Shown: positions 10,648 to 58,324 of the stretch, one piece after another
Position numbering within the stretch: the first letter of the stretch is position 1
Layout of the letters: each line of letters begins with the position of its first letter
Program-made: the position numbers and the translations under genes
Notes under the pieces: generated by a model
Seen by the model: only the letters and a program-made list of their open reading frames with translations
Databases searched by the model: none
What the model was told of the DNA's origin: nothing
Source of the DNA: an uncultured Gammaproteobacteria bacterium
Lineage (GTDB): Bacteria; Patescibacteriota; Microgenomatia; Levybacterales; UBA12049
Direction: 5' to 3'
NCBI GenBank assembly: GCA_964525395.1
Contig: CAZGGU010000003.1
Coordinates: 2,883 to 66,882 of the forward strand
DNA: 64,000 bases

Positions 10648-10678
10648 CATATTCAATTTGTTTGCTTTACTTCTTTTT

Positions 10679-10686
10679 TGTATAAT
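10679..10686 (+). promoter_or_regulatory. extended -10 TGTATAAT, 6 nt upstream of GTG 10693
   Basis: Perfect TATAAT right after the tRNA. Supports GTG 10693 rather than TTG 10678 as the start. Confidence 0.45.
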
Positions 10687-10692
10687 CCTAAT

Positions 10693-20672: not shown

Positions 20673-21416
20673 ATGAAATTAACAACGATAATTATTACAA
20701 AGAATGAAGAAAAAAATATCGCAGATTGTTTGGACTCAGTTAAATTTTCCGACGAAATAATCGTAGTTGATAATAATTCAACTGACTTAACACCCGAGAT
20801 TGCTAAAAAATTTGGTGCAAAAGTCATAAGGGAAAAATTTGAAAGTTTTTCTGCTCAGCGTGAAGCAGGACTTAAAGCTGCTAAATCTGACTGGGTTTTA
20901 TATTTGGATGCTGATGAAAGAATCAGTGAGAAGTTAAAAGAAAATATATTAGAGACAATTAAAGACAATAATACGAAAGAGGTTTATAAAATAAAGAGAA
21001 AAAACTTCTATTTTTATAAATATGAATGGAAATTTTATGATGATTTGGAAAGGTTGTTCAAAAAAGATGCGCTTAAGAGTTGGTATGGGGAAATTCATGA
21101 AAGTCCTAATTTTATCGGTGAAGTTGGTAGTTTAAATGGATTTATAATTCACTATACTCATAATGATTTAACCTCAATGCTTAATAAAACTATAAAGTGG
21201 TCTGATACTGAAGCAAAACTTAGAATTGAAGCAAATCATCCAAATATGGGTTGGTGGAGATTTCCACGGGTCATGGTGCCCACATTTTTTAACTATTATG
21301 TTCGTCAGAAAGGATACAAGCTTGGGACAGCAGGGTTAATTGAATCAATTTTTCAGTCTTATAGCATGTTTATTACTTATGCGAAGTTATGGGAAATGCA
21401 GCAAAAGAAGTCTTAA
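20673..21416 (+). CDS. GT2 glycosyltransferase
   Basis: LTTIIITKNEEKNI...EIIVVDNNSTD...LDADERI. Paralogous in style to 33386-34240. Confidence 0.75.
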   Translation: MKLTTIIITKNEEKNIADCLDSVKFSDEIIVVDNNSTDLTPEIAKKFGAKVIREKFESFSAQREAGLKAAKSDWVLYLDADERISEKLKENILETIKDNNTKEVYKIKRKNFYFYKYEWKFYDDLERLFKKDALKSWYGEIHESPNFIGEVGSLNGFIIHYTHNDLTSMLNKTIKWSDTEAKLRIEANHPNMGWWRFPRVMVPTFFNYYVRQKGYKLGTAGLIESIFQSYSMFITYAKLWEMQQKKS

Positions 21417-21643
21417 GGTAGAAAATTAGTCTTTTTAAAATCTTCAATTTTAATTCTGGTTTTAGCAAATCTAAATAAATAAATAATCTCGAGTATTCCA
21501 AGAGTAATGGTATTTAAAATTAGCATAGCTACGAACCAATTTTTCTGATCATATTTTGCCGCGCGCCAAAGTGCTAGCGCTTTCCAGAAAAGGGTCCATG
21601 CGAGTATTACTATTCCAATTAAGGGGTTAAAGCCAGAATCCAT
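21413..21643 (-). CDS. small two-TM membrane protein (76 aa); the only minus-strand gene inside the glycosylation array
   Basis: PLIGIVILAWTLFWKALALW and WFVAMLILNTITLGILEIIYLF hydrophobic segments. Positive-inside loop. Fills an otherwise empty 280-bp gap. Confidence 0.4.
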   Translation of the reverse strand: MDSGFNPLIGIVILAWTLFWKALALWRAAKYDQKNWFVAMLILNTITLGILEIIYLFRFAKTRIKIEDFKKTNFLP

Positions 21644-21682
21644 ACCTGAATATTATCATTTCTTTCACAAAAGAGCAAAAAT

Positions 21683-21691
21683 TGTTAGAAT
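21683..21691 (+). promoter_or_regulatory. extended -10 TGtTAGAAT, 6 nt upstream of GTG 21698
   Basis: Same geometry as the other leaderless-type promoters. The transcript would begin at GUGAGUCCCGUU. Confidence 0.4.
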
Positions 21692-21697
21692 AAACAT

Positions 21698-22822
21698 GTG
21701 AGTCCCGTTGAGAATTGCGGTGATTTGAGTATGATTGATAATAAAAAAATATCTAACGGGTTAAAAATAGGAATTTATGATCCATATCTAGATGACATTG
21801 GAGGTGGCGAGAAATACATGATGACTATCGCCGAATTTTTATCAAAATCTCACGATGTTGATGTTTTTTGGGATGAAATATCTGTTATCGATAAAATATC
21901 CGAGAGATTTGGATTAAACCTGACTAATGTAAATATTGCTAATAACATTTTTAAGTACCCATTTGTTAAAAGACAGAAAGCTTCTAAAAAATACGATATT
22001 ATTATTTTTCTTTCAGATGGCAGTATCCCGATTTTGTCTTCAAAAAAAATCTTTATTCATATTCAGCAGCCAATTCTTAATAAAAAATTAACGATTAAGG
22101 ATAAATTAAAGCTCAAAAGGATAAGTGGTATTTTCGTTAATTCAGAATTTACAAAAAAATTCGTGGATCGGGTATTTGGGGTAAAAAGTAAAATTTTATT
22201 TCCACCAGTAAATATTTACGGAATGCATAACGAAAAGCAGAATATTATTTTACATGTTGGGCGTTTTAGGGTCATTCAGGTAAGTTCAGATGACTATAAA
22301 AAACAGTCAGTGATGATTAACGTTTTTAAGAAAATGGTTGATTCAGGCCTGAAAGACTGGAAGTTTGTAATTGCAGTAAGCCTCCCTGATGAGTTTGATC
22401 CAAAATTTGTGGCGATGAAAAATAGCGCTAAGGGATATCCAATTGAATTCCTTATTAATTCTTCAAATGAGTCACTTTGGAAAAAAGGAGCAAAGGCAAA
22501 AATTTATTGGCATGCAAGTGGATTTGGTGAGGATCTAGAAAAGCATCCTGAGCTTGCCGAGCATTTTGGTATCTCAACAGTAGAAGCAATGGGTGTAGGA
22601 GCAGTGCCAGTGGTAATTAATGCTGGAGGACAAGCTGAGATAGTTCAAGATGATAAAAATGGACTTCTATGGGAGAGTTTGGATGAATTTGAAAAAGATA
22701 CTTTTAAGTTAATTAATGATCCAAAGCTACTTAAAGAAATGTCAGTGAATGCTTACAAAAGATCACTCGATTTTGATAAAGAAAATTTTTATAAAACAAT
22801 TAAGCAAATATTAAATGTTTAA
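21698..22822 (+). CDS. GT4 (GT-B fold) glycosyltransferase
   Basis: N-terminal LKIGIYDPYLDDIGGGEKY. C-terminal FGISTVEAMGVGAVPVV EX7E-type motif. The start may be GTG 21698 or ATG 21731 (MIDNKK). Confidence 0.8.
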   Translation: MSPVENCGDLSMIDNKKISNGLKIGIYDPYLDDIGGGEKYMMTIAEFLSKSHDVDVFWDEISVIDKISERFGLNLTNVNIANNIFKYPFVKRQKASKKYDIIIFLSDGSIPILSSKKIFIHIQQPILNKKLTIKDKLKLKRISGIFVNSEFTKKFVDRVFGVKSKILFPPVNIYGMHNEKQNIILHVGRFRVIQVSSDDYKKQSVMINVFKKMVDSGLKDWKFVIAVSLPDEFDPKFVAMKNSAKGYPIEFLINSSNESLWKKGAKAKIYWHASGFGEDLEKHPELAEHFGISTVEAMGVGAVPVVINAGGQAEIVQDDKNGLLWESLDEFEKDTFKLINDPKLLKEMSVNAYKRSLDFDKENFYKTIKQILNV

Positions 22823-25052
22823 GAAATTATTACCGATCTTTGGATTTATTTTTATTTCCGTAATATTTTTTTGGCAGTTTTTTTTCAAAGGTCTTGTGCC
22901 AATTTCCTCTGACACAGTAGTTGGATTGTATCATCCGTATAGAGATTTCTATGCGAAAGAATTTCCAAGAGGATATCCTTTTAAAAACTTTTTAATCACA
23001 GATCCCGTTCGTCAACAATATCCTTGGAGAACCCAATCTTTGATTTCATTTGAAAATGGTAAGTTACCAACTTGGAATTCTTACGCTTTTTCTGGTACCC
23101 CAGGGTTAGCCAATTTTCAATCTGCTGCATTTTACCCATTTAATATTTTATTCTTTTTTCTGCCTTATATATATTCTTGGTCAATTTTAATATTTCTCCA
23201 ACCACTACTTGCTGGAATTTTTTTATATTTTTATCTTCGTAATTTAAAACTTGATGGCTATTCCAGTTTTTTCGGAGGAATTGTTTTTGCATTTTCAGGA
23301 TTTTTTGTTACCTGGCTTGAATGGGGAACGGTTCTTTCTACCGCTCTTTGGCTGCCATTAGTTTTACTTTCAATCGACAAAATATTTGAACATAAAAAAG
23401 ATAAAAGAATTATTTGGCCTATTTTATTATTTATTAGCTTAGCTTTTGCAATATTTGGTGGGCATTTGCAGACATTATTTTATTTGTTTATTTTTTCCTT
23501 TGTTTATTTTCTGTGTCGACTATGGCAATCCAAGAAAAAAATACAGTTTTCTTTTAGCGTTGGAGTTTCCATAATTTCAGCGTTAATTATTGGATCGATT
23601 CAATTGGTACCAACCTTTAAATTTATTCAGCTTTCTGGTCGTGGGATGGATATGATTTTATGGAAAGAAGAAGGATGGTTTTTGCCTTTTAGACACATGA
23701 TCCAATTTGTTTCACCTGATTTTTTTGGAAATCCTACCACTCTTAATTATTGGGGGGCTTGGAATTATGGAGAACTTACTGCTTATGCAGGCATTACCAC
23801 TTTAATGTTTGGTTTAGTGGCGATTCTATTTAGAAGAGATAAAAAAACTTGGCTATATCTTTCTGCAATTATTTTTTGCTTAATGCTAATTCTACCTAGT
23901 CCGATTTCTAAATTACCATTCATCTTAAACCTACCATTTATATCAACCTCGCAGCCTACAAGGTTAATCTTTGTCATCGACTTTTCATTGTCTGTTCTAG
24001 GAGCGCTTGGTCTTAATTATTTAATAGTTAAAGGAAAAATAAAAAATGTTGTTATACCAGTTGCTTTCATTTGTTTGATTTTGCTATTTCTCGTCGCCTT
24101 TGCAGTTTTAGGCGGAAGATTTGGAATAGATCCAATAAATTTAATGATTGCAAAAAGAAATTTAATTTTACCAATCGGAATTTTTGCTTTTTCTTCAATT
24201 GCTGTCATTTGTTTTTTACTTTTACCGAAAAAGTTTAAATCAGTTTTTCTTATTTTATTAATTTTTATCACAGTCGCTGATTTATTTAGATTTTCTGGGA
24301 AATTCAATACCTTTTCAAATAAGGAATTTTTGTATCCTCAGACTAAATCTACTGAATTTATGAGAAATAATTTAGGGCTTTACAGAATAGGGACAGCTGA
24401 CGCAAGACTTATGGCGCCGAACTTTCAAATTATGCATGGTCTTTATTCAGTTGAAGGCTATGATCCACTTTATATTGGTCGATATGCAGAGTTTATAGCA
24501 GCTATTAATAGAAATAAGCCTGATATCGCTCCTCCTTTTGGATTTAACAGAATAATTAGAGTGGAAAATTATTCTTCACCACTCATTAATTTACTTGGTA
24601 TAAAGTTTGTTATGAGTATGACTGATATGAACAATCCTGGTTTTGAAAAAGTATTCGAAGAAGGTGAGACAAAAATTTATCAAAACAATAACGTTTTACC
24701 TAAAGCTTATTTTGTGGAAAATATCTTTTTTGCAAATTCCAAGCAAGAAGTAATCAATAAGATGTTTGCTAAAAATTTTAAACCTATGTCTACCGCTGTG
24801 GTTGAGAATAAAATTAATGAAAAATTTGAGGTTGGCTCAGTTGAAATCTTAAGATATTCATCAGATGAAGTTGTTTTAAGAACTACTAATAATGGTGAAG
24901 GATTTTTAGTTTTGACAGATTCATATTATCCAACATGGCATGTTATGATAGATAATCAGAAATCAAGAATATATCAGACAAATTATATTTTTAGGGGTGT
25001 AGTAGTGCCAAGTGGTGAACACAAAATAACATTTGAAAATAATTTATTATGA
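22815..25052 (+). CDS. large YfhO-like/GT-C-like polytopic membrane protein with C-terminal extracytoplasmic domain
   Basis: 745 aa. N-terminal loop YHPYRDFY...LPTWNSYAFSGTPGLANFQSAAFYPFNILF. About 13 TM. Confidence 0.5.
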   Translation: MFKKLLPIFGFIFISVIFFWQFFFKGLVPISSDTVVGLYHPYRDFYAKEFPRGYPFKNFLITDPVRQQYPWRTQSLISFENGKLPTWNSYAFSGTPGLANFQSAAFYPFNILFFFLPYIYSWSILIFLQPLLAGIFLYFYLRNLKLDGYSSFFGGIVFAFSGFFVTWLEWGTVLSTALWLPLVLLSIDKIFEHKKDKRIIWPILLFISLAFAIFGGHLQTLFYLFIFSFVYFLCRLWQSKKKIQFSFSVGVSIISALIIGSIQLVPTFKFIQLSGRGMDMILWKEEGWFLPFRHMIQFVSPDFFGNPTTLNYWGAWNYGELTAYAGITTLMFGLVAILFRRDKKTWLYLSAIIFCLMLILPSPISKLPFILNLPFISTSQPTRLIFVIDFSLSVLGALGLNYLIVKGKIKNVVIPVAFICLILLFLVAFAVLGGRFGIDPINLMIAKRNLILPIGIFAFSSIAVICFLLLPKKFKSVFLILLIFITVADLFRFSGKFNTFSNKEFLYPQTKSTEFMRNNLGLYRIGTADARLMAPNFQIMHGLYSVEGYDPLYIGRYAEFIAAINRNKPDIAPPFGFNRIIRVENYSSPLINLLGIKFVMSMTDMNNPGFEKVFEEGETKIYQNNNVLPKAYFVENIFFANSKQEVINKMFAKNFKPMSTAVVENKINEKFEVGSVEILRYSSDEVVLRTTNNGEGFLVLTDSYYPTWHVMIDNQKSRIYQTNYIFRGVVVPSGEHKITFENNLL

Positions 25053-25981
25053 AAATTAGTGTAATTATTCCAAATTATAATGGTGAGGAATTGCTAAAGA
25101 GAAATATTCCTAAGGTCATTGTGGCACTTCTTGAATATTCAGGACCTAAAGAAATTATTATAGCTGATGATGCATCTACTGATAATTCAATAGAAGTAAT
25201 AAAAAAAATAATTCAAGAAAATAAAAACGTTGATATAAAACTAGTGGACTCAATCGTTAATCGCGGATTTTCTTCCAATGTTAATGCTGGAGTGAATGTT
25301 TCAGTGGGGGACATAATAATTTTACTTAATACGGATGTTGCCCCAAAGAAGAATTTTTTAAAGCCGCTTCTTGCTCATTTTTCTGACGAAAAAACATTTG
25401 CAGTGGGGTCTTTAGATGAAAGTATTGAGGGCAGTAGAACTGTTTTAAGAGGAAGAGGTATTGGACAATTTAAGCGAGGATTTTTAGTTCATAAAGCGGG
25501 AGAATTAGATAAAGACAATACGCTTTGGGTAAGCGGAGGAAGTAGTGCGTTTAGAAAAAGTATTTGGGATAAATTAGGAGGACTTGATGAAAACTTTGAC
25601 CCCTTTTATTGGGAAGATATAGATTTGTCATTTAGAGCATTGAAATCTGGATATAAAATTTATTTTGAGAAAGAATCTGTAGTTGTTCATGAGCATGAAA
25701 AAGGAAGTATAAAAAATGAATTTAGTTCAAAAAAAATTAAAAAAATCGCTTATAGGAACCAGATTATGTTTATTTGGAAAAATACTAATTTTGGTACTTT
25801 AATTTCTAACATTTTTTGGCTACCATATCATTTGATAAAAACTTTAGTAAATGGTGACAGTTCATTTGTTAAGGGATTTATCTTAGCAGTAATTAAATTA
25901 CCAAGAATAATAGGTGGTCGAAGAAAAGCTCAGAAATTATTTTCGCTATCAGATTCTCAGGTGACTCAAAGTATTCAATGA
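25049..25981 (+). CDS. GT2 glycosyltransferase
   Basis: ISVIIPNYNGEE...IIIADDASTDNS...LLNTDV...WEDIDLSFR. Confidence 0.8.
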   Translation: MKISVIIPNYNGEELLKRNIPKVIVALLEYSGPKEIIIADDASTDNSIEVIKKIIQENKNVDIKLVDSIVNRGFSSNVNAGVNVSVGDIIILLNTDVAPKKNFLKPLLAHFSDEKTFAVGSLDESIEGSRTVLRGRGIGQFKRGFLVHKAGELDKDNTLWVSGGSSAFRKSIWDKLGGLDENFDPFYWEDIDLSFRALKSGYKIYFEKESVVVHEHEKGSIKNEFSSKKIKKIAYRNQIMFIWKNTNFGTLISNIFWLPYHLIKTLVNGDSSFVKGFILAVIKLPRIIGGRRKAQKLFSLSDSQVTQSIQ

Positions 25982-26679
25982 AATTATCAATAATCATTCC
26001 GGTTTACAACGAAGAAAAAACAATTGCAAAAATAATAGATCGCGTAAATGCGGTTAAGATTCCCGGTGTGCAGAAAGAAGTTATTGTTGTTGATGATGGG
26101 TCGACTGATAAAACAGTAAGTAAGATTAATAAAAATAAAGTTAAGTTTTTTGAAAACCCAGTAAATATGGGAAAGGGTGCAGCTGTAAAAAACGGGATTG
26201 ATCATGCTACTGGGGATTATGTAATTATTCAGGATGCTGATCTTGAATATGATCCCGAATTCATTAAAATTCTCATGAAGCCAATATTGGATAAAAAGGC
26301 AAAGGTGGTTTATGGAACAAGGCTTAAAAGAATGCCGCATTTTAAAGGAGAAGAGAAAAACTTCAGATTTTTACTTCATTATTTGGGCAATAGAGGTTTA
26401 AGTTTGGTAACAAGTGTTTTATATGGAAGCTGGATCACTGATATGGAGACATGTTACAAATTATTTCCAACGAAAGCTGGTAAGAATTTTAAGTTAAGAG
26501 CAAAAAGATTTGATTTTGAACCAGAGATTACTGCAAAACTCTTAAAAAAAGGCTATAAAATTTTAGAAGTTCCGATTACTACAATTCCGAGAGGATTCGA
26601 TGAGGGAAAAAAATTAAGAACATTTCATGATGGTTCAATTGCACTTTACACCTTAGTTAAATACAGGATTTATGATTAA
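25978..26679 (+). CDS. GT2 polyprenyl-phosphate sugar synthase-like glycosyltransferase (ArnC/GtrB/Dpm1-like)
   Basis: LSIIIPVYNEEKTI...EVIVVDDGSTDKT...GKGAAVKNGI...YVIIQDADLEYDP. Confidence 0.85.
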   Translation: MKLSIIIPVYNEEKTIAKIIDRVNAVKIPGVQKEVIVVDDGSTDKTVSKINKNKVKFFENPVNMGKGAAVKNGIDHATGDYVIIQDADLEYDPEFIKILMKPILDKKAKVVYGTRLKRMPHFKGEEKNFRFLLHYLGNRGLSLVTSVLYGSWITDMETCYKLFPTKAGKNFKLRAKRFDFEPEITAKLLKKGYKILEVPITTIPRGFDEGKKLRTFHDGSIALYTLVKYRIYD

Positions 26680-28360
26680 TTCTGTCCTAAAATATAGGAT
26701 CTACATTTTGCTGGTTCTTATTTTTTTAATTGGAGCATTCTTAAGATTTTATAGAATAAGTGATGTTCCAGTTTCTTTATATTGGGACGAGGTGTCTTCT
26801 GCTTATAACTCATTTTCACTTTTGCATACTGGAAAGGATGAGTTCGGAAAAACTCTTCCACTTCTTTTTAGAGCTTTTGAAGACTATAAAACTCCAGCCA
26901 ATATTTATTTGATGATTGTCCCGGTAGCGCTATTTGGCCTAAATGAGTTTAGCGCAAGATTTACCTCAGCATTTCTAGGATCATTACTAATTATCGTTAC
27001 ATTTTTTCTCGTACGTGAACTTTTTGGGAAAAAAATAAGAGTCTATGGAAGAGATATTAATACAGATTTTGTAGGATTATTATCAGCATTTTTGCTTGGA
27101 ATATCTCCTTGGGCGCTGCAATTTTCACGTACTGGTTTTGAAGCAAATTCAGGACTTTTTTTCGTAGTTTCGGCAATTACATTATTTTTGGGTGGTATAA
27201 ATCGAAATAGTAGAAATTACTATTTTATTTCAATGGCCACTTTTGCTATTAGTTTATATTTTTATAGAAGTATATGGGTCTTTGTTCCATTAATGCTTCT
27301 TAGTTTATTTATTATTTTTAGAAAAGAGATCTTAGATAAGAAAAATATTAAAAATACTATTCTCGGGATAATTATCTTTGGTGTACTTGTGGCTCCTTTT
27401 GCTCCCACAATGATTTCTAAGCAAGGAATGACACGAACTAGGCAAGTTAATGTTATTTCTAATTCTGTTGAGAGAACATATGCAAATGCAAAACTTCAGG
27501 ATTCAGCAGGAAATACATTCATTTCAAGAATTGTCTATAACAGAAGAATCGCATATGTCGAAATAATAATCGGAAATTATACGAAACATTTTCGTCCAGC
27601 ATATTTGTTCTTGAGGGGAGATGCTAATAATAGACATTCTGTAGAGGGGATGGGGGTAATGTATGTTTGGGAATCTATCTTTTTATTATTAGGATTGTTT
27701 CTTCTTATGCATGTTAATAAAAGGACAAGATATATAATTGTTCTTTGGCTTTTAATCGCTCCAATTCCTGCTGCTTTATCTGTTCCTTCACCGCATGCAC
27801 TGAGGAGCATGAATATGCTTCCTACCTTACAAATACTAAGTGCCTTGGGATTAGTCTTTATTTTTTATTACCTAAGAGGGAAGATGAAATTTGTTTATTT
27901 AGTATTTATTTTTGGTGTAATCGCTATCTATTTTATTCGTTATTTTTTTTCTTATTATGACTATACCGCGTTTAAGACAAGCGCAGACTGGGCAGATGGA
28001 TATAAGCAGCTAGCGACATATATGGAGGAAAATGAAAATAAATATGACAAGCTGGTCGTTTCAGGACACTATTGGCAACCCTATGTCTATTTTCTCTTTT
28101 ATAAAAATTATGATCCGAAGTCTTTTCAGGAGAGCGGTTCAAAATCAGGTTTTGGAAAGTATATTTTTGGCGGAACAAGCTGGGATATGAATGGAAAAGA
28201 GCTAGGGGATCAGAATTTAGAAAAGCTCGCTGGTTCAAAAAAGATTTTAGTTGCCTTGTCTCCTATTGAGTATGAGCTTCAAAAAGATAATATAGAAGTT
28301 GTAAAAGAAATAAAAAACCATAATAATGAACTAGTGTTTATTATTGGCACTCTTAAGTGA
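26672..28360 (+). CDS. GT-C membrane glycosyltransferase (ArnT/PMT-like), paralogue 1 of 3
   Basis: LYWDEVSSAYNSFSLLHTGKDEFGKTLPLLF loop-1 motif. About 11 TM plus a C-terminal domain. Confidence 0.75.
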   Translation: MINSVLKYRIYILLVLIFLIGAFLRFYRISDVPVSLYWDEVSSAYNSFSLLHTGKDEFGKTLPLLFRAFEDYKTPANIYLMIVPVALFGLNEFSARFTSAFLGSLLIIVTFFLVRELFGKKIRVYGRDINTDFVGLLSAFLLGISPWALQFSRTGFEANSGLFFVVSAITLFLGGINRNSRNYYFISMATFAISLYFYRSIWVFVPLMLLSLFIIFRKEILDKKNIKNTILGIIIFGVLVAPFAPTMISKQGMTRTRQVNVISNSVERTYANAKLQDSAGNTFISRIVYNRRIAYVEIIIGNYTKHFRPAYLFLRGDANNRHSVEGMGVMYVWESIFLLLGLFLLMHVNKRTRYIIVLWLLIAPIPAALSVPSPHALRSMNMLPTLQILSALGLVFIFYYLRGKMKFVYLVFIFGVIAIYFIRYFFSYYDYTAFKTSADWADGYKQLATYMEENENKYDKLVVSGHYWQPYVYFLFYKNYDPKSFQESGSKSGFGKYIFGGTSWDMNGKELGDQNLEKLAGSKKILVALSPIEYELQKDNIEVVKEIKNHNNELVFIIGTLK

Positions 28361-29988
28361 AAAAATTCTTAAAACCTAAATATATCCTATTTGTCATTGT
28401 TTTACTCGCAGCATTTCTGCGATTTTATAATCTGTCGATAAATCCTCCAGCATTAAATTGGGATGAAGCAGCGCTTGGATATAATGCTTATTTGCTTGGA
28501 ATAGATGGTAAAGATGAATTCGGTAAGACTTTACCACTAGCCTTTATCGAGTCTTACGGAGATTATAAGCCTGTTGTTTATTCATACCTCTCGATCGTTC
28601 CGGTAAGAATATTTGGTTTGAATGAATTAGGTGTGAGATTTTTGAGTGCATTTTTAGGAACATTTACTGTTCTTTTAACATATTTTTTAGTTAAGCAAAT
28701 TTTTTATAAGAAAGAAAATGAAAATATTGAATCGATCGCTTTATTTTCTTCCTTTATAATTGCAATTTCTCCTTGGACGATAATGCTTTCTCGAGGCGCT
28801 TATGAAGCAAATGTCTCAACTTTTTTTATTGTTCTTGGAATTTTATTTTTTCTTTATGCAGTTAATAAAAAGATTTGGTTTTTAGTTCCTTCTGCTATTT
28901 CTCTGGCGATCACTTTTTACACATTTAACACTGCGAGAATATTCATACCTTTAGTCATAGTCGTTATGGCAATTGTTTTTAGAAAAGTTCTAATTAAAAA
29001 TTATAAACAGGTACTAATCTCAGGAATTGTAGGATTAATTATTCTTCTTCCTACGCTCCCTTTTTTATTTTCTCCTCAGGCTAAAATTAGATTTCAGGAA
29101 GTAAATATCTTTAGTAATCCGAAAATTGTTGAAGATTCTAATCAATACATTGTTAATGACAATGGTGCAATTTGGTCCAAGATTATTCACAACAGGAGAG
29201 TTTTGTATGGAATTGAATTTTCGAAACATTATTTTGATAATTTAAATCCTGATTTCTTATTTATAAAAGGAGATGGGAATCCGAGATTTTCAACTCAGGA
29301 CGTAGGTCAGTTATATTTAATTGAACTGCCATTTTTGATTTCGGGAATATTTTTACTTTTCAGAAAAAGAGAAGGGCATTATTGGCTCATACCTGTCTGG
29401 TTTCTTTTAGGAATTATTCCAGCTGCTACAGCACGAGAGACGCCTCATGCTTTAAGAATTGAAACTGTAATTCCGATGCTACAAATCTTGGTGGCTTATG
29501 GAGCAGTAAATCTAATCATCATGATGAAGAAATATAGAGGTGTAGCATATAGTTTGATTATACTTTTTATGTTAGGAAGTTTGATCTATTTTTATCATGG
29601 TTTGATTTTTCACTATCCAAGAGAGTATTCATCTGAATGGCAGTATCCGTATAAGGAGGCTGTTGCATTCGCAAATAAGAATAAAGATAAATATTCATCA
29701 GTTTTGGTCACAGAAAAACTTGGCAGACCTTATATCTACTTTTTACTTTATGGAAAAGTAAGTCCAGTAGAATTCAGACAGAGTTCTAAGATTGACAGGG
29801 AGGCGCTGGGATTTGTACATGTGAGAAGTTTTGATAAATATAAATTCGTAAATGAAATAGAGAAGGAGCAAGAAAGTGGCGTTTTATATATCGATGTTCC
29901 AAATAACTTGCCAAAAGACGTGAAAGTTTTGAAGGAATTCAGATTGTTAAATGGAGACCAGGGCTTAGTGGCATATGAAAAAAATTGA
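28357..29988 (+). CDS. GT-C membrane glycosyltransferase (ArnT/PMT-like), paralogue 2 of 3
   Basis: LNWDEAALGYNAYLLGIDGKDEFGKTLPLAF. Collinear with neighbours, including HNRR..Y, FIKGDGNPRFS and PHALR motifs. Confidence 0.75.
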   Translation: MKKFLKPKYILFVIVLLAAFLRFYNLSINPPALNWDEAALGYNAYLLGIDGKDEFGKTLPLAFIESYGDYKPVVYSYLSIVPVRIFGLNELGVRFLSAFLGTFTVLLTYFLVKQIFYKKENENIESIALFSSFIIAISPWTIMLSRGAYEANVSTFFIVLGILFFLYAVNKKIWFLVPSAISLAITFYTFNTARIFIPLVIVVMAIVFRKVLIKNYKQVLISGIVGLIILLPTLPFLFSPQAKIRFQEVNIFSNPKIVEDSNQYIVNDNGAIWSKIIHNRRVLYGIEFSKHYFDNLNPDFLFIKGDGNPRFSTQDVGQLYLIELPFLISGIFLLFRKREGHYWLIPVWFLLGIIPAATARETPHALRIETVIPMLQILVAYGAVNLIIMMKKYRGVAYSLIILFMLGSLIYFYHGLIFHYPREYSSEWQYPYKEAVAFANKNKDKYSSVLVTEKLGRPYIYFLLYGKVSPVEFRQSSKIDREALGFVHVRSFDKYKFVNEIEKEQESGVLYIDVPNNLPKDVKVLKEFRLLNGDQGLVAYEKN

Positions 29989-31624
29989 TTTTAAAATTAT
30001 CATATTGTTCTTAGGAATTGTTTTACTAGCAATTTTTTTAAGATTTTCGCATCTCGATCAAACTCCACCCTCACTAAATTGGGATGAAACATCATGGGGT
30101 TACAATGCATATTCAATTTTAATGACAGGAAAAGACGAGTATGGATCAAAGCTCCCATTGATAATTAGATCGTTTAATGATTACAAGCCTGGGCTTTATG
30201 CCTATTTACTAATTCCATTCATCTCTGTATTTGGGCTCTCAGATTTTATTGTTCGTTTTCCAAATGCATTATTTGGGGTTTTGACTGTAATTACTACTTA
30301 TTTCCTTGCAAAGGAATTGTTTAAAAATAGAGCTATAGCATTTATTAGTATGTTTCTCATGGCAATTTCTCCGTGGAGTATTCAGTTTTCTAGATTTGCT
30401 CATGAAGGTATCGTGGGACTTGAGTTCAACTTACTTATGGCGTTTTTCTTTATTAAGGGAATGAAGAATCCTAAATTGTTATGTTTATCAGCACTTTTTG
30501 CAGGATTGTCTCTGTATAGTTATCAAAATGAAAAAGTTTTTGTTCCTCTGTTTGGCTTAATACTTTTAGTTGCTTACATTAAAGATTTTATAATAGTCCC
30601 AAAGAAATATATAAGTGCAGCTTTTATGGTGGGTTTAGTCGTAGCTTTGCCTATTATTTATATAACTTTGACTAATCCTGCATCTTTAACTCGTGCCAAA
30701 GGAGCAAGTTTTCTAAATAATCCAATTGGAGTGCTTAGACAAGACCAGCCGGAAAGAATTTTAAAGGATAAGAATAATGGTGATGTCATAGGATTGGCAA
30801 TTGATAACAGGAGGATTTCATATGTCAAAGAAATTGTAGGGAATTATTTAGTTCATTACGATCCTAACTTTTTGTTTATAAATGGCGATGTTATTCCAAG
30901 ACATCAAGCATCAGGAATGGGCCACTTATATCTAATCGAACTGCCTTTCCTATTGTTGGGTTTGTATTTTTTTGTTTTCGGTAAATTTGACCGAAAAAGT
31001 AAGATTTTTGTAATTCTTTGGATACTCATTGTGCCAATTGCTGCGTCGATTACATGGGATGTTCCTAATTCAGGGAGGACATTAAATTTCTTGCCCACCT
31101 TCCAAATGATAATTGCGATAGGGATAGTTAGCTTCTATTTCATAATAAAAAATGCTAAATTCCACAGATATATTAAATATGGAATTTTTGGAGTGATAAT
31201 CTTACTTGCTACTTTTAATTTTATTTACTATCTAAATCAATACTTTGTTCAATATAGATACTTTAATTCTCAAGCTTGGCAATATGGCTATAATCAGATC
31301 ATTCCAGTAATAGAAAAAGAATATCCGAATTATAAAAAAATTCATGTAGGCACTATGGTTCCTCTTGATCAGTCATATATTTTCTTTTTATATGGTTTGA
31401 GATTTGATCCAGCTACTTATCAAAAAACATCATCTTCAGGTGAGTATCAGGCAAATCATAATTTCGATAAGTTTGAATTTTCAAATTTTGATTGGAAAGA
31501 CAGAAAATCTGGAGAACTTTATATAGGAAAAGCTAATCAATTTTCTGGAGTTGAGGAATCAAATATTATAAAAAGGATTAAATTCCTTGATGGGTCATCA
31601 GATATTTTAATAGTAAAAAATTAA
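29975..31624 (+). CDS. GT-C membrane glycosyltransferase (ArnT/PMT-like), paralogue 3 of 3
   Basis: LNWDETSWGYNAYSILMTGKDEYGSKLPLII. Same collinear motifs. Confidence 0.75.
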   Translation: MKKIDFKIIILFLGIVLLAIFLRFSHLDQTPPSLNWDETSWGYNAYSILMTGKDEYGSKLPLIIRSFNDYKPGLYAYLLIPFISVFGLSDFIVRFPNALFGVLTVITTYFLAKELFKNRAIAFISMFLMAISPWSIQFSRFAHEGIVGLEFNLLMAFFFIKGMKNPKLLCLSALFAGLSLYSYQNEKVFVPLFGLILLVAYIKDFIIVPKKYISAAFMVGLVVALPIIYITLTNPASLTRAKGASFLNNPIGVLRQDQPERILKDKNNGDVIGLAIDNRRISYVKEIVGNYLVHYDPNFLFINGDVIPRHQASGMGHLYLIELPFLLLGLYFFVFGKFDRKSKIFVILWILIVPIAASITWDVPNSGRTLNFLPTFQMIIAIGIVSFYFIIKNAKFHRYIKYGIFGVIILLATFNFIYYLNQYFVQYRYFNSQAWQYGYNQIIPVIEKEYPNYKKIHVGTMVPLDQSYIFFLYGLRFDPATYQKTSSSGEYQANHNFDKFEFSNFDWKDRKSGELYIGKANQFSGVEESNIIKRIKFLDGSSDILIVKN

Positions 31625-31670: not shown

Positions 31671-33386
31671 ATGAAGCTAAATAGAATTAAATTAAAAGTA
31701 AAGGAGTTAATAAAAAATCAGAATTTTTGGATATTTTTAGCCTTTTTTATCTTCGTAGCAGCGATATTTATAATTGATAGTAAGCATGAGAGATATCCTG
31801 ACGAATTTGACAATATTTTAGGTGGAAAGTACTTATTACAAGGTAAATTAATCTATAAAGATTGGTTTACTCATCATGGACCTTTTTCATATGTGGTTGC
31901 AGCTGTAGTAAATTTATTTAGCTTTAATTCCTTTGTTCTTTTTAGATTCTTCTATGCAATATTTTTACTTTTGCTAACATTTGGTTCATATTTTTATATC
32001 AAGTCTAGCCTTAAAACAGTTGAAACTAAATTTTATTTATTTTTTATATTCTTTTTGGGATTAGCATCAACATATTTCTGGGGACAAATGCTTCTCGCTG
32101 ATAATCTGGCAGCTTTTCTTCTAACTCCAGTTTTTGCATTGGTCTTTTTGAAATCAATCAATAATTTGAAGTTTAGTACAAAAGATTTTATTTTTATTTC
32201 AGTATTTTCATTCCTCGCGTTGATGAGCGCACTAACATATTCGTATTTAGTGGCGGGTGTTTATGGTTTTGTATTTATTTATTACTTATACCAAGAAAGA
32301 AGGAAGTCTGACCCAATATATTTATTGAAAATGATTGGTGTAATTCTATTGCCATTTGTTTTATTCCTACTTTATTTAATTGTCACGGGATCTTTAGGAA
32401 GCTATTTTTATGATGCAGTGAAATTTAATCGAGATTTTTATATCTACTATCCAGGATTTGAAGGAAAACCTCCCTCAAATCCAATTAGATACGGAATTAT
32501 CATGCTTCAAGGTTTTCATAATAATTTTTCTTCGATGATGCTAGGCGTTAGAGATTTCAATTTCACTTATCCATTTAACATTTCTCTAGGTGTCGCCAAT
32601 ACAGCTCTCGCAATTTATTTAATTCTTAAAAAGAAATATTTACCAGTTTTACTTCTCGTAGGTGTTTTAGTGTATGCAAATGCAAGAACTAATCCTTTTA
32701 GTTCTGCTGAAACTGACTATCAGTCAGCAGTTTACATAATGATCTCTCTTTTTAATCTTTGTTTCGTAATCCCTGCGCTTTATAGAGAAATAAACATTTC
32801 ATCAGATTCAGCTAAAAAAATTATTTGTGGAGTACTTTTTATACTGGTATTAGTTTATAGCTTTTTCTGTTTCACATTTATATTAAGAAAGTTTTCTTAT
32901 AAAGCTTATGATAAATATATGGGATTGGCTTCCTCTATCTATGACGGTCCTAGAATCGCACCTGTGATGAATAGAATTGTTCCTAGTGATCATTATTCCT
33001 GGATTGGTCCTTTTGCATTTGAAGATTTGTATTACTTAGATTCCAAAATCCCTTCTAGATATCAGGTTTTACTTCCAGGAATGGGTAAATCTGAGAAAAT
33101 TCCCGCTGAAATAATTTCAGATTTTGAAAAAAATAAACCTGACGTAATTTATTTTGATAAAGATTTCTTTATTTTAGGGGGTAATCCCGCAGTTTACGGA
33201 AAATTCTTTATGGACTTCTTAGGAGAGAATTATTACAAGCTTGATGAGATCGATAACGGAGCATATCAGTATTCCGATGGCGTTGATAGATCATTTTTAT
33301 TTGAACAAAAGCTTTATATAAGCAAAGATAAAGCGCCTGAGGTAGTTAAGCGACTTAAATCAGAAGGATTAATAATAAATAACTAA
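31671..33386 (+). CDS. GT-C-like polytopic membrane protein (ArnT-like N-terminal loop)
   Basis: DEFDNILGGKYLLQGKLIYKDWFTHHGPFSY fits the DE...Y...G...Y..(K/H)PP ArnT-type motif. About 12 TM plus a C-terminal soluble region. Confidence 0.55.
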   Translation: MKLNRIKLKVKELIKNQNFWIFLAFFIFVAAIFIIDSKHERYPDEFDNILGGKYLLQGKLIYKDWFTHHGPFSYVVAAVVNLFSFNSFVLFRFFYAIFLLLLTFGSYFYIKSSLKTVETKFYLFFIFFLGLASTYFWGQMLLADNLAAFLLTPVFALVFLKSINNLKFSTKDFIFISVFSFLALMSALTYSYLVAGVYGFVFIYYLYQERRKSDPIYLLKMIGVILLPFVLFLLYLIVTGSLGSYFYDAVKFNRDFYIYYPGFEGKPPSNPIRYGIIMLQGFHNNFSSMMLGVRDFNFTYPFNISLGVANTALAIYLILKKKYLPVLLLVGVLVYANARTNPFSSAETDYQSAVYIMISLFNLCFVIPALYREINISSDSAKKIICGVLFILVLVYSFFCFTFILRKFSYKAYDKYMGLASSIYDGPRIAPVMNRIVPSDHYSWIGPFAFEDLYYLDSKIPSRYQVLLPGMGKSEKIPAEIISDFEKNKPDVIYFDKDFFILGGNPAVYGKFFMDFLGENYYKLDEIDNGAYQYSDGVDRSFLFEQKLYISKDKAPEVVKRLKSEGLIINN

Positions 33387-34240
33387 TGAAAATCTCCGTA
33401 GCGCTAGCTGTATTTAATGAAGAAAAAAATTTAGAGAGGTGTCTTAAATCTGTCGAAGAGTTAGCTGATGAAATAGTTATAGTAGATGGGTCTTCTAATG
33501 ATAAAACAGTGGAGATTGCTAAGAAATTTAAAGCTAAAATTCTCATAAAGGATAATCCTCCCATGTTTCATATCAATAAACAAAAAGCGATTGATATGTG
33601 CTTGGGATCGTGGATCTTGCAGCTTGATGCGGACGAAGTGGTAAGTCACGAGTTGGCTGAAGAAATAAAGTTAATCAGCAGTTTAAGCGACAAGGAGATT
33701 GAAGAATATCAGGAAAGTGTTAAAAATATTGAAATGCTAAGGCGTCACCAGTCTCTAATTGATAAGCGAGATGGAAAAATTGGGGATGATAAAAAAGAGT
33801 ATGCAGCATTTTTCATTCCAAGAGCGAATTTTTTTCTGGGTCGATACTTAAAATATGGGGGAGTTTACCCAGATGGTGTAATCAGGTTATTTAAAAAAGG
33901 AAAAGCTTATTTACCTTGTAAAGATGTGCATGAACAGTTCGAAGTTTCAGGGCGTGTAGGGTGGCTACAAAATGATTTACTGCACTACGATTCTCCGACA
34001 TTCGAAAAGTATATTAAAAGAAATAATAGATATACGACCTTTATTGCATCGCAGTATAAGGATGAAAATCTTCCAAAGAATCCAATCTATTTTATTAAGT
34101 ATGTTTTTGTTTTGCCGATTAAATGGTTTTTCTTAACATTTTTTAGACATAAAGGTTTTCTTGATTCATGGCAAGGATTTGTATTTTCATTTTTTTCTTC
34201 ATTAAGATTTGCAATATCCTACATTAAATACATTAGCTAA
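33386..34240 (+). CDS. GT2 glycosyltransferase
   Basis: ISVALAVFNEEKNL...EIVIVDGSSNDKT...LQLDADEVV. Confidence 0.75.
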   Translation: MKISVALAVFNEEKNLERCLKSVEELADEIVIVDGSSNDKTVEIAKKFKAKILIKDNPPMFHINKQKAIDMCLGSWILQLDADEVVSHELAEEIKLISSLSDKEIEEYQESVKNIEMLRRHQSLIDKRDGKIGDDKKEYAAFFIPRANFFLGRYLKYGGVYPDGVIRLFKKGKAYLPCKDVHEQFEVSGRVGWLQNDLLHYDSPTFEKYIKRNNRYTTFIASQYKDENLPKNPIYFIKYVFVLPIKWFFLTFFRHKGFLDSWQGFVFSFFSSLRFAISYIKYIS

Positions 34241-34268: not shown

Positions 34269-35237
34269 ATGAAATATCTTGTCACGGGCGGAGCCGGATA
34301 CATCGGAAGTTTTATGGTTAAATCTCTTCTTGAGAGAGGAGAAGAGGTAGTTGTCCTAGATAATTTGGAGAGAGGCCATGACTGGGCTGTGTCTAAAGGG
34401 GCAATACTAGTCACGGGTGACATTCGGGATAAAAGTATTCTTCATAAAATTTTTGAAGAAAATAAGATTGAGGCTATTTTTCATTTTGCTGGATTAATTT
34501 CTGTTGAAGAGTCGACTAAAAATCCTAATATGTACTTCGAAAATAATGTATTAGGTTCAAAAATTTTGTTTGAAACAGCTGTTGAAAAGGGAATTAAGAA
34601 ATTCATTTTTTCATCCACTGCGGCGGTTTATGGTAATCCAGAGATTATACCTATTCCCGAAGATCATCCAAAAGCTCCTACGAGTCCTTATGGTGAGTCT
34701 AAGCTTGAGACTGAGCAGAATCTATCTGGGTTAAGAGAGGACAATCCTGATGTTAGTTTTGTATGCCTTAGGTATTTTAATGCTTGTGGAGCAGCTTTGG
34801 ACGGCTCTCTGGGGGAAGATCATAAGCCAGAAACACATATTATTCCTCTTGCCATTAAGGCTGCAAGGAGTGGTCAAGAATTTAAGATATTTGGCACAGA
34901 CTATGACACGCCAGATGGTTCGTGCTTGAGAGATTACATCCATGTTCTTGATTTAATAGATGCTCATTTCTTAGCTCTTGGGCATATATCAACAAATCCA
35001 GGCGGATATTTTTTCAATGTGGGAACTGGAAAAGGAATATCTAACCGAGAAATCATTGAAGAAGTAAAAAGAATTAGTGGGAAAGACTTTCCGGTCGTTG
35101 AATTTGAGCGTAGAGCGGGAGATGCAGATCGATTAATTGCTGATCCAACGAAAATTAATTCATTAGGATTTTCTCCAAAATATTCAGACATAAAAACTAT
35201 TATTGAATCTGCATGGAATTGGCATAATTCTAGATGA
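34269..35237 (+). CDS. galE: UDP-glucose 4-epimerase
   Basis: MKYLVTGGAGYIGSFMVKSLLERGEEVVVLDNL Rossmann. Catalytic YGESK. Full-length collinear with GalE. Confidence 0.85.
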   Translation: MKYLVTGGAGYIGSFMVKSLLERGEEVVVLDNLERGHDWAVSKGAILVTGDIRDKSILHKIFEENKIEAIFHFAGLISVEESTKNPNMYFENNVLGSKILFETAVEKGIKKFIFSSTAAVYGNPEIIPIPEDHPKAPTSPYGESKLETEQNLSGLREDNPDVSFVCLRYFNACGAALDGSLGEDHKPETHIIPLAIKAARSGQEFKIFGTDYDTPDGSCLRDYIHVLDLIDAHFLALGHISTNPGGYFFNVGTGKGISNREIIEEVKRISGKDFPVVEFERRAGDADRLIADPTKINSLGFSPKYSDIKTIIESAWNWHNSR

Positions 35238-36286
35238 AAATAGCAATTGATATTTCACCTTTAACTTCAGGACACAGTGTTCGTGGAACAGGTTTCTATT
35301 TATTAAATCTCAAGTCAGCACTCGAAAAATACTTTCCTGAAAACGAATATGTTTTTTTTAAAACTGAAGATGAAATCCCACACGATGCACAGCTAGTTCA
35401 TTTTCCTTATTTTGATCCCTTTTTCTTAAATTATCCTAAAACCAATTTACCTAGTGTAATTACAGTTCATGATTTAACGCCCATTGTTTTTAAAGATCAG
35501 TTTCCTGCTGGGATAAAAGGGAATATTAAATGGCAGGTGCAAAAAAGAAAGCTTAAGTCTACGAAAAATATAATTACAGATTCTCATGCTTCTAAAAAAG
35601 ATATAGTTAAGTTTGTTGGGCTACCTCAAAACAGTGTGGAGGTTGTCTATTTGGCTGCTGCAGAGCATTTTAAGCCAATTTCTAAATCGGAAAAAGAAAA
35701 AATAAATAAGAAGTTTAATCTTCCTAATAAATTTTTACTTTATGTGGGTGATGTTACCTGGAATAAAAACCTTCCAAACCTAATTAGAGCTGTTATTGAA
35801 TCTGATGTTAATCTAGTTATTGCTGGTAAAGCTTTTATAAATGAAGAGTATGATAAGGCTAATCCATGGAATAAAAGTTTTCACGAAGCTAAAGTGCTCG
35901 CAAGTTCAAGTGAAAAAATTAAAGCATTGGGTTTTATTTCAGATGTTGATTTAGTAGGGTTATATAACTGTGCCCTAGCTACCATTATGCCTTCATTTTA
36001 TGAAGGCTTTGGTTTACCTGTTCTTGAAGCAATGCAGTCAGGTTGCCCAGTTATCACATCAAAGCGAGGGTCACTTGAAGAAGTGGCTGGTAGCGCAGCT
36101 TATTTTATTGATCCCGACAGCACTCTTTCTATAAAAGAGGGGATACTGGAGGTTTTCTCTAATGATAATTTAAGAAAAGCAATGTCAAAAAAGGGCATTA
36201 TTCAAGCTAAGAAATTTAGCTGGAAGAAAACTGCAGAAGAGACACTAAAAGCTTATGAAAAAGTTATTCTTGAATCAGGAAGTTAA
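35234..36286 (+). CDS. GT4 (GT-B) glycosyltransferase
   Basis: MKIAIDISPL N-terminus. EGFGLPVLEAMQSGCPVITS C-terminal motif. Confidence 0.85.
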   Translation: MKIAIDISPLTSGHSVRGTGFYLLNLKSALEKYFPENEYVFFKTEDEIPHDAQLVHFPYFDPFFLNYPKTNLPSVITVHDLTPIVFKDQFPAGIKGNIKWQVQKRKLKSTKNIITDSHASKKDIVKFVGLPQNSVEVVYLAAAEHFKPISKSEKEKINKKFNLPNKFLLYVGDVTWNKNLPNLIRAVIESDVNLVIAGKAFINEEYDKANPWNKSFHEAKVLASSSEKIKALGFISDVDLVGLYNCALATIMPSFYEGFGLPVLEAMQSGCPVITSKRGSLEEVAGSAAYFIDPDSTLSIKEGILEVFSNDNLRKAMSKKGIIQAKKFSWKKTAEETLKAYEKVILESGS

Positions 36287-38721: not shown

Positions 38722-39459
38722 ATGGCAGTTGATTTGAGTCTAATCATGCCTGCCTACAAACAAGAAAAAACAATCGTTAAGGATATCAAAGAGATTGATA
38801 AAGTTCTCTCCACGCTTAAATTGAAATACGAAATAATCGTTGTTGTTGATGGGTTTGTCGATAAAACATTCCAAAAAGCCAAAAGAATTAAAAAAAGAAA
38901 AGTAAAAGTTATAGGTTACGAAAAAAATCTAGGCAAAGGATTTGCGATTAAGACTGGTGTTGAAAAAGCAAATGGAGATATTATTGGCTTCATCGATGCA
39001 GGAATGGATTTAGATCCCAGAGAGATAAAATATATGTTAGATATTATGTCCTGGAAAAATGCTGATATAGTTGTTGGAAGTAAACTTCATCCGGATTCAG
39101 TTGTAAATTACCCAATTAGCCGTAAAGTTATTTCATGGTGTTATAGATTGGTAACGCGTTCTTTATTTAATTTAAATATTAAGGATACACAGGTGGGTCT
39201 GAAAATTTTTAAGTATAAAGTTGCTAAGAAAGTTTTTCCCAAAATAGTAGTTAAAGCATTTGCATTTGATATAGAAGTTTTAGCAGTAGCTCACAGTTTT
39301 GGTTATAAGAAAATATATGAAGCACCTATTAGATTAAGATTTCGTCAAGGCAGTATTACGAATACCAATTTTTGGAAAGTGGGCTTTTGGACATTAGTTG
39401 ATACGATGGCCATATTTTACAGAATGCACATCATCAATTACTATAAAAAGAATGGGTAA
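38722..39459 (+). CDS. GT2 polyprenyl-phosphate sugar synthase-like glycosyltransferase
   Basis: LSLIMPAYKQEKTI...YEIIVVVDGFVDKT...GKGFAIKTGV...IGFIDAGMDLDP. Confidence 0.8.
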   Translation: MAVDLSLIMPAYKQEKTIVKDIKEIDKVLSTLKLKYEIIVVVDGFVDKTFQKAKRIKKRKVKVIGYEKNLGKGFAIKTGVEKANGDIIGFIDAGMDLDPREIKYMLDIMSWKNADIVVGSKLHPDSVVNYPISRKVISWCYRLVTRSLFNLNIKDTQVGLKIFKYKVAKKVFPKIVVKAFAFDIEVLAVAHSFGYKKIYEAPIRLRFRQGSITNTNFWKVGFWTLVDTMAIFYRMHIINYYKKNG

Positions 39460-58310: not shown

Positions 58311-58324
58311 GCGTTAATAACTTT

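Follow-up and report, generated by a model that had tools for sequence, protein, structure and literature searches.

Three consecutive genes, here called c1, c2 and c3, lie on the forward strand of the window, a stretch of 64 000 nucleotides of contig CAZGGU010000003.1 (assembly GCA_964525395.1) from a genome that is titled uncultured Gammaproteobacteria bacterium in GenBank and is placed in Levybacterales (Patescibacteriota, Microgenomatia) by GTDB. The three genes probably represent anciently diverged, still functional members of a GT-C_A membrane glycosyltransferase family that has expanded in Microgenomates. Their sequences and the structure predicted for c2 place them in the Pfam PMT_2/PMT clan, with an ArnT-like architecture of ∼13 transmembrane (TM) helices followed by a C-terminal extracytoplasmic domain, and their products probably serve to decorate the cell surface. 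What the analysis shows directly is the paralogy, fold, conservation, synteny and selection.

Paralogy, shared motifs and selection

The original prediction had described three consecutive genes encoding proteins of 543-562 amino acids, and its coordinates and lengths for these open reading frames (ORFs) proved exact. In an all-against-all BLASTP comparison of the window ORFs the three proteins align to each other over their full lengths, with identities of 35.7, 33.6 and 33.9% (E values of 1.8e-94, 9.4e-86 and 3.0e-84, respectively), which is far beyond chance. Along the protein, identity between the paralogues amounts to 46-55% in TM1 and the first loop and 28-35% in the membrane core, while the C-terminal extracytoplasmic domain is the most diverged part (25-28%, with insertions and deletions). 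c1 and c2 overlap by 4 nucleotides and c2 and c3 by 14 nucleotides, and the stop codon of the preceding GT2 gene (25978-26679) overlaps the start of c1 by 8 nucleotides. Such overlapping gene ends are the layout of a translationally coupled operon.

A lack of positional equivalence among the shared motifs had been set beforehand as the refuting outcome. A MAFFT alignment of c1-c3 contains 117 invariant columns and places the motifs WDE, Y-N, GKDE[FY]G, LPL, DYK, ISPW, SR..E, NRR..Y, LF..GD...R and P...R in the same columns in all three proteins, so that the original observation is upheld. Some of the motifs as they were first written have to be narrowed. In (W/N)WDE the WDE core is kept, but the residue before it is Tyr in c1 and Asn in c2 and c3, and never Trp. 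The NRR part of HNRR is common to all three, but its His is found only in c2 and is replaced by Tyr in c1 and Asp in c3. Similarly, GD of GDxNxR(H/F)S is retained throughout, but c3 departs from the remainder and reads GDVIPRHQ, and PHALR is kept in c1 and c2 but not in c3, which reads PNSGR.

The putative catalytic Asp-Glu pair, which the original prediction had described as common to all three proteins, is indeed kept in c1-c3, and its conservation within every orthogroup is 85% or higher (see below). WDE occupies residues 38-40 in c1, 35-37 in c2 and 36-38 in c3 (acidic residues D39/36/37 and E40/37/38), following TM1, which spans residues 7-23 in the model, and it is invariant across 38 family sequences. 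Fifty residues are common to all three orthogroups at a level of at least 85%, and these include WDE, DE of GKDE, D..K, SR..E, N.R, D of GD and P-H..R.

Of the residues that are at least 90% conserved in the respective orthogroup, c1 keeps 117 of 123, c2 keeps 87 of 94 and c3 keeps 94 of 100 (92-95%). Compared with the orthologues from two related loci (L001 and L002), the ratio of nonsynonymous to synonymous substitution rates (dN/dS; Nei-Gojobori method) is 0.11-0.16 for all three genes, with 0.11 for c3; synonymous sites are saturated (proportion of synonymous differences, pS, of 0.70-0.79), which makes these ratios rough while leaving their direction clear. c1-c3 are under purifying selection. 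Together with the intact ORFs and the retained orthogroup-conserved residues, the dN/dS ratios support the earlier suggestion that all three are likely functional, and all three look functional.

A rival reading, in which duplication has left one or two relic genes that are decaying or no longer catalytic, is very improbable. The obvious candidate for such a relic would be c3, which departs from GDxNxR(H/F)S and in which PNSGR (residues 364-368, window positions 31064-31078) takes the place of the PH(A/S)(L/V)R found in c1, c2 and most c3 orthologues, PH..R being present in at least 85% of the c3 orthogroup. However, the His-to-Asn change is common to the few nearest orthologues of c3 (PNSGR, PNAGR and PNAVR), and because they share it the change in this otherwise near-invariant residue is best read as a feature of the sub-lineage and not as decay. 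All three genes are intact and have conserved orthologues of their own, c3 resembles c1 and c2 in its rate of residue retention, its dN/dS is low, and it keeps WDE, GKDE, DYK, SR..E, NRR and GD. The reading of c3 as a pseudo-enzyme is largely refuted by this conservation.

Relatives and age of the duplications

A database search with c2 returned 4715 homologues, and among the matches listed the top 120 are 54-69% identical to it. The named top homologues come from Candidatus Levybacteria, Microgenomates or Patescibacteria, and relatives of c2 are publicly annotated as "glycosyltransferase family 39 protein" (NCBI) or "ArnT-like" (JGI). A scan of species-representative genomes gave 342 encoding stretches, and the best 80 loci, ranked by similarity to c1, were used for comparison. 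The informatively named records among these loci are Microgenomates-type metagenome-assembled genomes (MAGs). Many MAG records titled 'uncultured Gammaproteobacteria bacterium' (L002, L003, L005, L007-L010 and others) hold the same Microgenomates-type operon, as does one record titled 'Bacteroidota' (L048); identity across such records is 40-64% and the gene order is unchanged. The Gammaproteobacteria and Bacteroidota titles of these records are probably placeholders or errors.

In the closest loci each window copy has its own orthologue, and the order c1-c2-c3 is preserved. In L001, for example, the identities to the matching c1, c2 and c3 are 57, 63 and 58%, compared with 35-38% to the non-matching copies, and the same pattern is seen in L002, L004, L008 and L032. 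Overall, orthologues in other Levybacteria MAGs are 45-69% identical, compared with 34-36% between the paralogues. A neighbour-joining tree of 238 family members places c1, c2 and c3 in separate clades, of 20 members from 19 loci, 73 members from 70 loci and 85 members from 62 loci, respectively. In a bootstrap analysis with 85 taxa, 95, 100 and 99 of 100 replicates group the orthologues from loci with the triplet with c1, c2 and c3 of the window, respectively; the outer boundaries of the clades lack robust support. Both the c2 and the c3 clade include Chisholmbacteria, Curtissbacteria and Gottesmanbacteria, and the c2 clade also includes Daviesbacteria. Because orthologues group by copy in the pairwise identities, in the tree and in the bootstrap analysis, the paralogues must predate the divergence of these genomes. 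The duplications are therefore old, as had been proposed.

A single tandem triplication, which had been proposed as well, does not describe this family. The 80 loci carry one to six family members each within at most 21 kb (median of four), where the suggested check on relatives had considered one, two or three copies. Average-linkage clustering at ∼40% identity separates 14 groups of at least four members, and these are regarded as orthogroup-like because all but one of them have exactly as many members as loci. This pattern points to a multigene family with differential retention and not to one three-copy event, and the expansion of the family in Microgenomates, where the clustering indicates about a dozen old lineages, adds to what is known of such genes. 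The window itself holds two more, distant PMT_2 genes, at 12633 and 39398.

The three copies differ in how widely they are distributed. Orthologues of c1 (40-57% identity) are found in only about 15-19 of the 80 loci, despite the ranking of these loci by similarity to c1, while c2 is a near-universal member with orthologues in 67-70 of the 80. Orthologues of c3 are 40-58% identical to it. In the 55 loci where the sequence beyond c2 is long enough to tell, the next gene is a c3 orthologue of at least 40% identity in 28, and c2 has a family member as a neighbour in 48 of 58 cases. c2 and c3 form a widely conserved core pair that is found across Microgenomates, and c1 is a lineage-restricted member. 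The pair, as the conserved core of a Microgenomates envelope glycan operon, is another addition to what is known.

Fold and relation to characterised GT-C enzymes

All three proteins match Pfam PMT_2 (PF13231) above its gathering threshold of 26.1 bits, with scores of 35.2 bits for c1, 35.9 bits for c2 and 52.1 bits for c3. Pfam PMT (PF02366, threshold of 22.7 bits) is matched by c2 (47.4 bits) and c3 (31.2 bits), while c1 has no reported match. An AlphaFold2 model of c2, built from 38 sequences, has a predicted local distance difference test (pLDDT) score of 88.8 and a predicted TM-score (pTM) of 0.89. It consists of ∼13 membrane helices followed by a C-terminal α/β domain (residues ∼446-543). 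The top matches of this model in the PDB, as found using Foldseek, are all GT-C_A enzymes with a probability of 1.00 and comprise STT3, AglB, ArnT, ALG12, PglB, Pmt4 and Pmt1/2 (E values down to 3e-8, TM-scores of 0.49-0.56). STT3 and AglB give E values of 3e-8 to 1e-7, ArnT gives the best reciprocal TM-score (0.55-0.56 with either normalisation) and the matches to Pmt1/2 are partial; the fold of c2 is about equally near to STT3/AglB, ArnT and PMT. On the basis of the model, c1-c3 are ArnT/PMT-type GT-C enzymes of the GT-C_A fold class. Their original identification as ArnT/PMT-like GT-C enzymes is thus backed by Pfam, by the fold of c2 and by a profile match to ArnT.

This profile match was obtained by searching profiles of three and 38 family sequences against solved structures. 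ArnT (PDB entry 5ezm) is the sole sequence match (E value of 2.7e-4), and the alignment, which is weak, spans TM2-TM7. In it, the invariant residues K71 (of DYK) and E150 (of SR..E) align to chain residues K88 and D161 of 5ezm, which correspond to K85 and D158 of ArnT if the chain numbering has a constant offset of 3. In ArnT, D158 contacts the sugar (PMC7801869) and mutation of D55, K85 or K203 abolishes function (PMC8698208). A DE motif in loop 1 is a hallmark of GT-C enzymes (PMC8698208; also defined in PMC7801869). WDE is found directly after TM1, which is the site expected for this hallmark, and its loop would face outward.

The family shares with ArnT (GT83; Cupriavidus metallidurans, PDB entries 5ezm and 5f15) the GT-C_A fold with ∼13 TM helices and a C-terminal outer domain, and its donor would presumably also be a polyprenyl-phosphate monosaccharide, supplied by a neighbouring ArnC/GtrB-like GT2 enzyme. 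In contrast to ArnT, no PDB match could be detected for the C-terminal domain, no aminoarabinose (Ara4N) pathway adjoins c1-c3 and no lipid A acceptor is known in the lineage. The label 'ArnT-like' given to relatives by JGI and the position of ArnT as the sole sequence-level match in the PDB would agree with c1-c3 being genuine orthologues of ArnT whose products modify lipid A with aminoarabinose, but this is practically excluded. The NCBIfam equivalog model for ArnT (NF009784) gives 22.9 bits for c2 against a cut-off of 567 bits and no match for c1 or c3, the identity to ArnT is ∼12% and no set of arnA, arnB or arnD genes adjoins c1-c3. Patescibacteria are monoderm-like and are not known to have lipopolysaccharide, which also counts against this reading. 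The wide margin by which the equivalog cut-off is missed and the gene context refute it.

The family can also be compared with the PMTs (GT39; yeast Pmt1/2/4 and actinobacterial Pmt). The Asp-Glu motif in the first outer loop is common to both, and eukaryotic PMTs also form multigene families with cooperating paralogues. As regards the mannose donor, neither a GDP-mannose pathway nor Ppm1 was identified, the neighbour being a generic Dpm1/GtrB-like GT2. Instead of acting independently, the products of c1-c3 could form an obligate hetero-oligomer, like yeast Pmt1-Pmt2, that O-glycosylates Ser/Thr residues of proteins which are secreted or exposed at the surface, for example pilins or S-layer proteins. 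The tandem layout would in that case reflect co-expression of the subunits and not a difference in acceptor specificity. The PMT matches of c2 and c3 in Pfam, the family 39 label used by NCBI, the presence of Pmt1/Pmt2 and Pmt4 among the structural matches and the frequent adjacency of c2 to c3 or to another family member are consistent with this proposal, which we nevertheless consider unlikely. The structural match to PMT extends over only ∼270 columns (TM-scores of 0.30-0.33), whereas the matches to STT3 and ArnT are full length, and c1 falls below the PMT model. No Pfam match to a MIR domain was found in c1-c3 and the c2 model contains no β-trefoil insert. Furthermore, the gene context is of a polysaccharide type (GT2, GT4, YfhO, Wzx-like flippases and deoxy-amino-sugar synthesis) and not that of a stand-alone pmt gene with ppm1. 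A copy number that varies from one to six between relatives also fits a fixed complex poorly.

Operon, proposed pathway and wider glycan locus

The genes around c1-c3 are listed in Table 1. The order GT4-YfhO-GT2-GT2(25978)-[c1]-c2-c3-[31671]-GT2-GalE-like epimerase-GT4 is kept in dozens of Microgenomates loci.

Table 1. Positions of c1-c3 and of the adjacent genes in the window.
Feature	Position	Strand	Description
GT4	21698-22822	+	Pfam assignment; upstream part of operon
YfhO-type GT-C	22815-25052	+	Pfam assignment; upstream part of operon
GT2	25049-25981	+	Pfam assignment; upstream part of operon
GT2	25978-26679	+	233 aa; putative polyprenyl-phosphate hexose synthase that would make the donor
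c1	26672-28360	+	562-aa GT-C (PMT_2) paralogue, ATG start; lineage-restricted member
c2	28357-29988	+	543-aa GT-C (PMT, PMT_2) paralogue, GTG start; most widely conserved member
c3	29975-31624	+	549-aa GT-C (PMT_2, PMT) paralogue; usual downstream partner of c2
Polytopic membrane protein	31671-33386	+	571 aa; no Pfam or NCBIfam match; co-occurs with c1
GT2	33386-34240	+	Pfam assignment; downstream part of operon
GalE-like epimerase	34269-35237	+	Pfam assignment; downstream part of operon
GT4	35234-36286	+	Pfam assignment; downstream part of operon

The best solved relatives of the GT2 protein encoded directly upstream of c1 are the Dol-P-Man synthase of P. furiosus (PDB entry 5mlz; residues 1-228, full length, E value of 1e-14), GtrB (PDB entry 5ekp) and ArnC. 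None of its best NCBIfam resemblances, which are to AglJ, PpgS and a Dol-P-hexose transferase, reaches the equivalog cut-off. Orthologues with identities of 45-82% are present in 35 loci. The protein is thus a putative polyprenyl-phosphate-sugar synthase of the Dpm1/GtrB type, and its position upstream of c1 points to a sugar linked to polyprenyl phosphate as the donor and to glycosylation on the extracytoplasmic side.

From these data we infer a pathway, including its donor and sugar, the flipping of the lipid-linked sugar, the active-site topology, the acceptors and the way in which the paralogues divide their work. The GT2 enzyme would act on the cytoplasmic side of the membrane, where it would charge polyprenyl phosphate with a hexose taken from a nucleotide sugar. 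The lipid-linked sugar would then be flipped; no flippase gene adjoins c1-c3, and two MOP/Wzx-like genes are found elsewhere in the cluster. Each GT-C paralogue would subsequently transfer the sugar at the outer face of the membrane, using the loop-1 Asp-Glu pair together with the conserved Lys of DYK and Glu of SR..E that align to K85 and D158 of ArnT; the alignment is observed, and the roles of the residues are borrowed from work on ArnT and PMT. Finally, the paralogues would share a type of donor and act at different acceptor positions on an envelope glycopolymer or glycoprotein, because the catalytic loop is their best conserved part and the C-terminal outer domain their most diverged. This gradient of divergence fits a shared donor and different acceptors without proving them. 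It is also the one observation in favour of the sub-functionalisation, by acceptor site or by lipid-linked sugar, that the original prediction had suggested.

Systems in which a GT2, a flippase and an extracytoplasmic GT-C act as three components provide a precedent, and the C-terminal outer domain of their GT-C transferases has been implicated in acceptor binding (PMC11127046, PMC5836110). The locus resembles these systems (GtrA/GtrB/GtrC, CsbB/GtcA/YfhO and PPPRS/MATE/GT136) in that a GT2-type polyprenyl-phosphate-sugar synthase gene stands beside GT-C genes and in that a YfhO gene is located upstream of c1. It differs from them in that a single synthase gene is followed by three or four genes of the GT-C type, that no GtrA/GtcA-type flippase was found beside c1-c3 and that the GT-C family is PMT_2 and not GtrC, YfhO or GT136.

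Several observations weigh against the proposed assignment and pathway. WDE is probably equivalent to D55 of ArnT and to D77/E78 of Pmt1, as judged from its position after TM1 and the Pfam PMT match, yet it cannot be aligned to D55 residue by residue because the match to ArnT covers TM2-TM7. That match is the sole sequence link between the family and a solved structure, and its E value is weak. An NCBIfam scan of c1-c3 gave only sub-threshold resemblances, far below the cut-offs, and no close homologue of c1-c3 that has been characterised was found. The C-terminal domain of c2 (residues 424-543, window positions 29626-29985), when modelled alone (pLDDT of 93.6), has no meaningful Foldseek match in the PDB (best E value of 0.06, TM-scores of at most 0.40) and therefore offers no clue to the class of acceptor; its fold may lack a solved representative, or the domain may be too small and divergent for Foldseek. 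The pairing of the GT2 gene with the family is frequent but not strict, since a family member directly follows the orthologue in 15 of 35 loci and one or two genes usually lie between them in the others. In addition, there is no dedicated flippase gene of either the GtrA/GtcA or the MATE/MOP type between 21698 and 36286, and no GtrA-type gene was seen among ORFs of at least 120 amino acids.

The operon is embedded in a co-directional glycan locus of ∼46 kb (∼10.7-57.5 kb of the window), which contains many GT2 and GT4 genes, methyltransferase genes and a 3-acetamido-3,6-dideoxyhexose pathway. Nine GT-C-type genes in this locus are supported by Pfam (11451, 12633, 14190, 15839, 22815, c1-c3 and 39398), and the MOP/Wzx-like flippase genes are located at 18252-19700 and 37418-38701. 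The GT-C paralogues, YfhO and the other GT-C-like proteins might form an extracytoplasmic assembly line that elongates and branches one envelope glycan stepwise from polyprenyl-phosphate sugars. This is possible, if on the unlikely side. The number of GT-C-type genes in the cluster, the accompanying four Dpm1/GtrB-like GT2 paralogues and two MOP flippases, the conservation of the operon order across Microgenomates and the occurrence of ALG12, AftA and EmbB among the fold matches are in agreement with it. On the other hand, it overlaps with the favoured explanation, since different acceptors could be successive intermediates, nothing separates decoration from polymerisation, and neither a lipid-anchored primer pathway nor a phosphoglycosyl transferase turned up in the ORFs that were scanned. 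An assembly line is a refinement of the favoured explanation and does not contradict it. A more specific form, in which the c2-c3 core with the extra paralogues, YfhO, the GT-C-like proteins and the Dpm1-like synthases makes up a Microgenomates-specific extracytoplasmic assembly line for a major envelope polymer that has not been described, is rather doubtful.

Parallels to such an assembly line are MptA/MptB/MptC, AftA-D and EmbA-C in mycobacteria and ALG3/9/12 in the lumen of the endoplasmic reticulum (ER). The mycobacterial embC-embA-embB, Aft and Mpt genes resemble c1-c3 in being tandem, anciently diverged GT-C paralogues, and their products use one polyprenyl-phosphate-sugar donor with different acceptors in the assembly of a cell-envelope glycan. 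The Emb proteins differ in their size of ∼1,100 amino acids, their large carbohydrate-binding outer domains and the signature of another GT-C family, and the fold similarity of EmbB and AftA to the c2 model is weak (TM-scores of 0.31-0.35). If the locus does encode an assembly line, it would represent a bacterial equivalent to the arabinan and mannan pathways of mycobacteria or to the ALG pathway of the ER lumen, and a GT-C family without a characterised member would build a polymer from lipid-monophosphate sugars and might merit a CAZy family of its own.

Returning to the favoured explanation of old, functional paralogues that decorate the surface, tandem GT-C paralogues beside a lipid-phosphate-sugar synthase are of an already known kind, and such arrays are normal in the lineage. 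What the c1-c3 family adds is that it is only remotely related to ArnT, PMT and STT3 and has no characterised member; our literature searches found no paper describing this GT-C family in bacteria of the Candidate Phyla Radiation. The organism belongs to the ultra-small, uncultivated bacteria. The genomes of Patescibacteria are tiny, yet ∼46 kb are devoted to surface glycan genes here, and the cell surface is where episymbionts meet their hosts. As distinct enzymes under selection, and not recent redundant copies, c1-c3 give heterologous expression and glycan studies defined targets. What the family offers to GT-C enzymology is a compact (∼545 amino acids), confidently modelled relative of ArnT, PMT and STT3. 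In other respects the expansion of this glycosyltransferase family is nothing unusual.

Some further observations concern the neighbouring genes. The gene at 31671-33386 is present in ten of 12 loci that have c1 together with a c3-type gene. Its product has a Y-P-D-E-F-D stretch after the first hydrophobic helix and may be a further GT-C that escapes recognition; hhalign gives a probability of 3% against the GT-C family. Scans for promoters and terminators gave fewer sites than shuffled sequence and are uninformative on the operon. Between 20.5 and 36.5 kb there is a single sizeable intergenic gap (21416-21698, 282 bp). It holds the second-best sigma-70-like match of the forward strand (21664-21691, 10/12), which has an extended TG and lies a short distance upstream of the GT4 gene. 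This may be an internal promoter, while the scan as a whole is not enriched relative to shuffled sequence.

Elsewhere in the glycan locus, four small Dpm1/GtrB-like GT2 paralogues are encoded on the forward strand at 10678-11454, 17542-18252, 25978-26679 and 38722-39459. They are 27-33% identical to each other and each of their genes adjoins GT-C-type genes. The run 37418-38722-39398 looks like a complete three-component set of flippase, synthase and GT-C. A tandem pair of membrane proteins of 553 and 568 amino acids (14190-15851 and 15839-17545, forward strand) is 32.5% identical over the full length (E value of 7e-74). Both match Pfam PTPS_related, a GT-C-like membrane family, and their homologues recur in related loci; hhalign gives the 14190 protein a probability of 3-4% against the GT-C family of c1-c3.

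A fusion of FdtA (WxcM-like) with a hexapeptide acetyltransferase is encoded together with a DegT-family aminotransferase at 46728-48763 (forward strand), and a second DegT gene is located at 42806-44068. By their predicted functions, the FdtA fusion and DegT are a signature of the synthesis of dTDP-3-acetamido-3,6-dideoxyhexose, which is typical of S-layer and O-antigen-type glycans. In the region 57748-59882 (forward strand) an ORF of 181 amino acids covers only the N-terminal half of a GT4 (Glyco_transf_4) and is followed by a gene for a 23S rRNA intervening-sequence protein (58325-58714; PF05635, E value of 4e-35) and by a full-length GT4 gene (58752-59882). The short ORF may be the remnant of a truncated GT4 beside an inserted gene. 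Two forward-strand genes inside the glycan locus, 50512-52812 and 54485-56497, encode proteins of 766 and 670 amino acids that have no Pfam match and are weakly alike, with 24% identity over ∼500 residues (E value of 2e-5).

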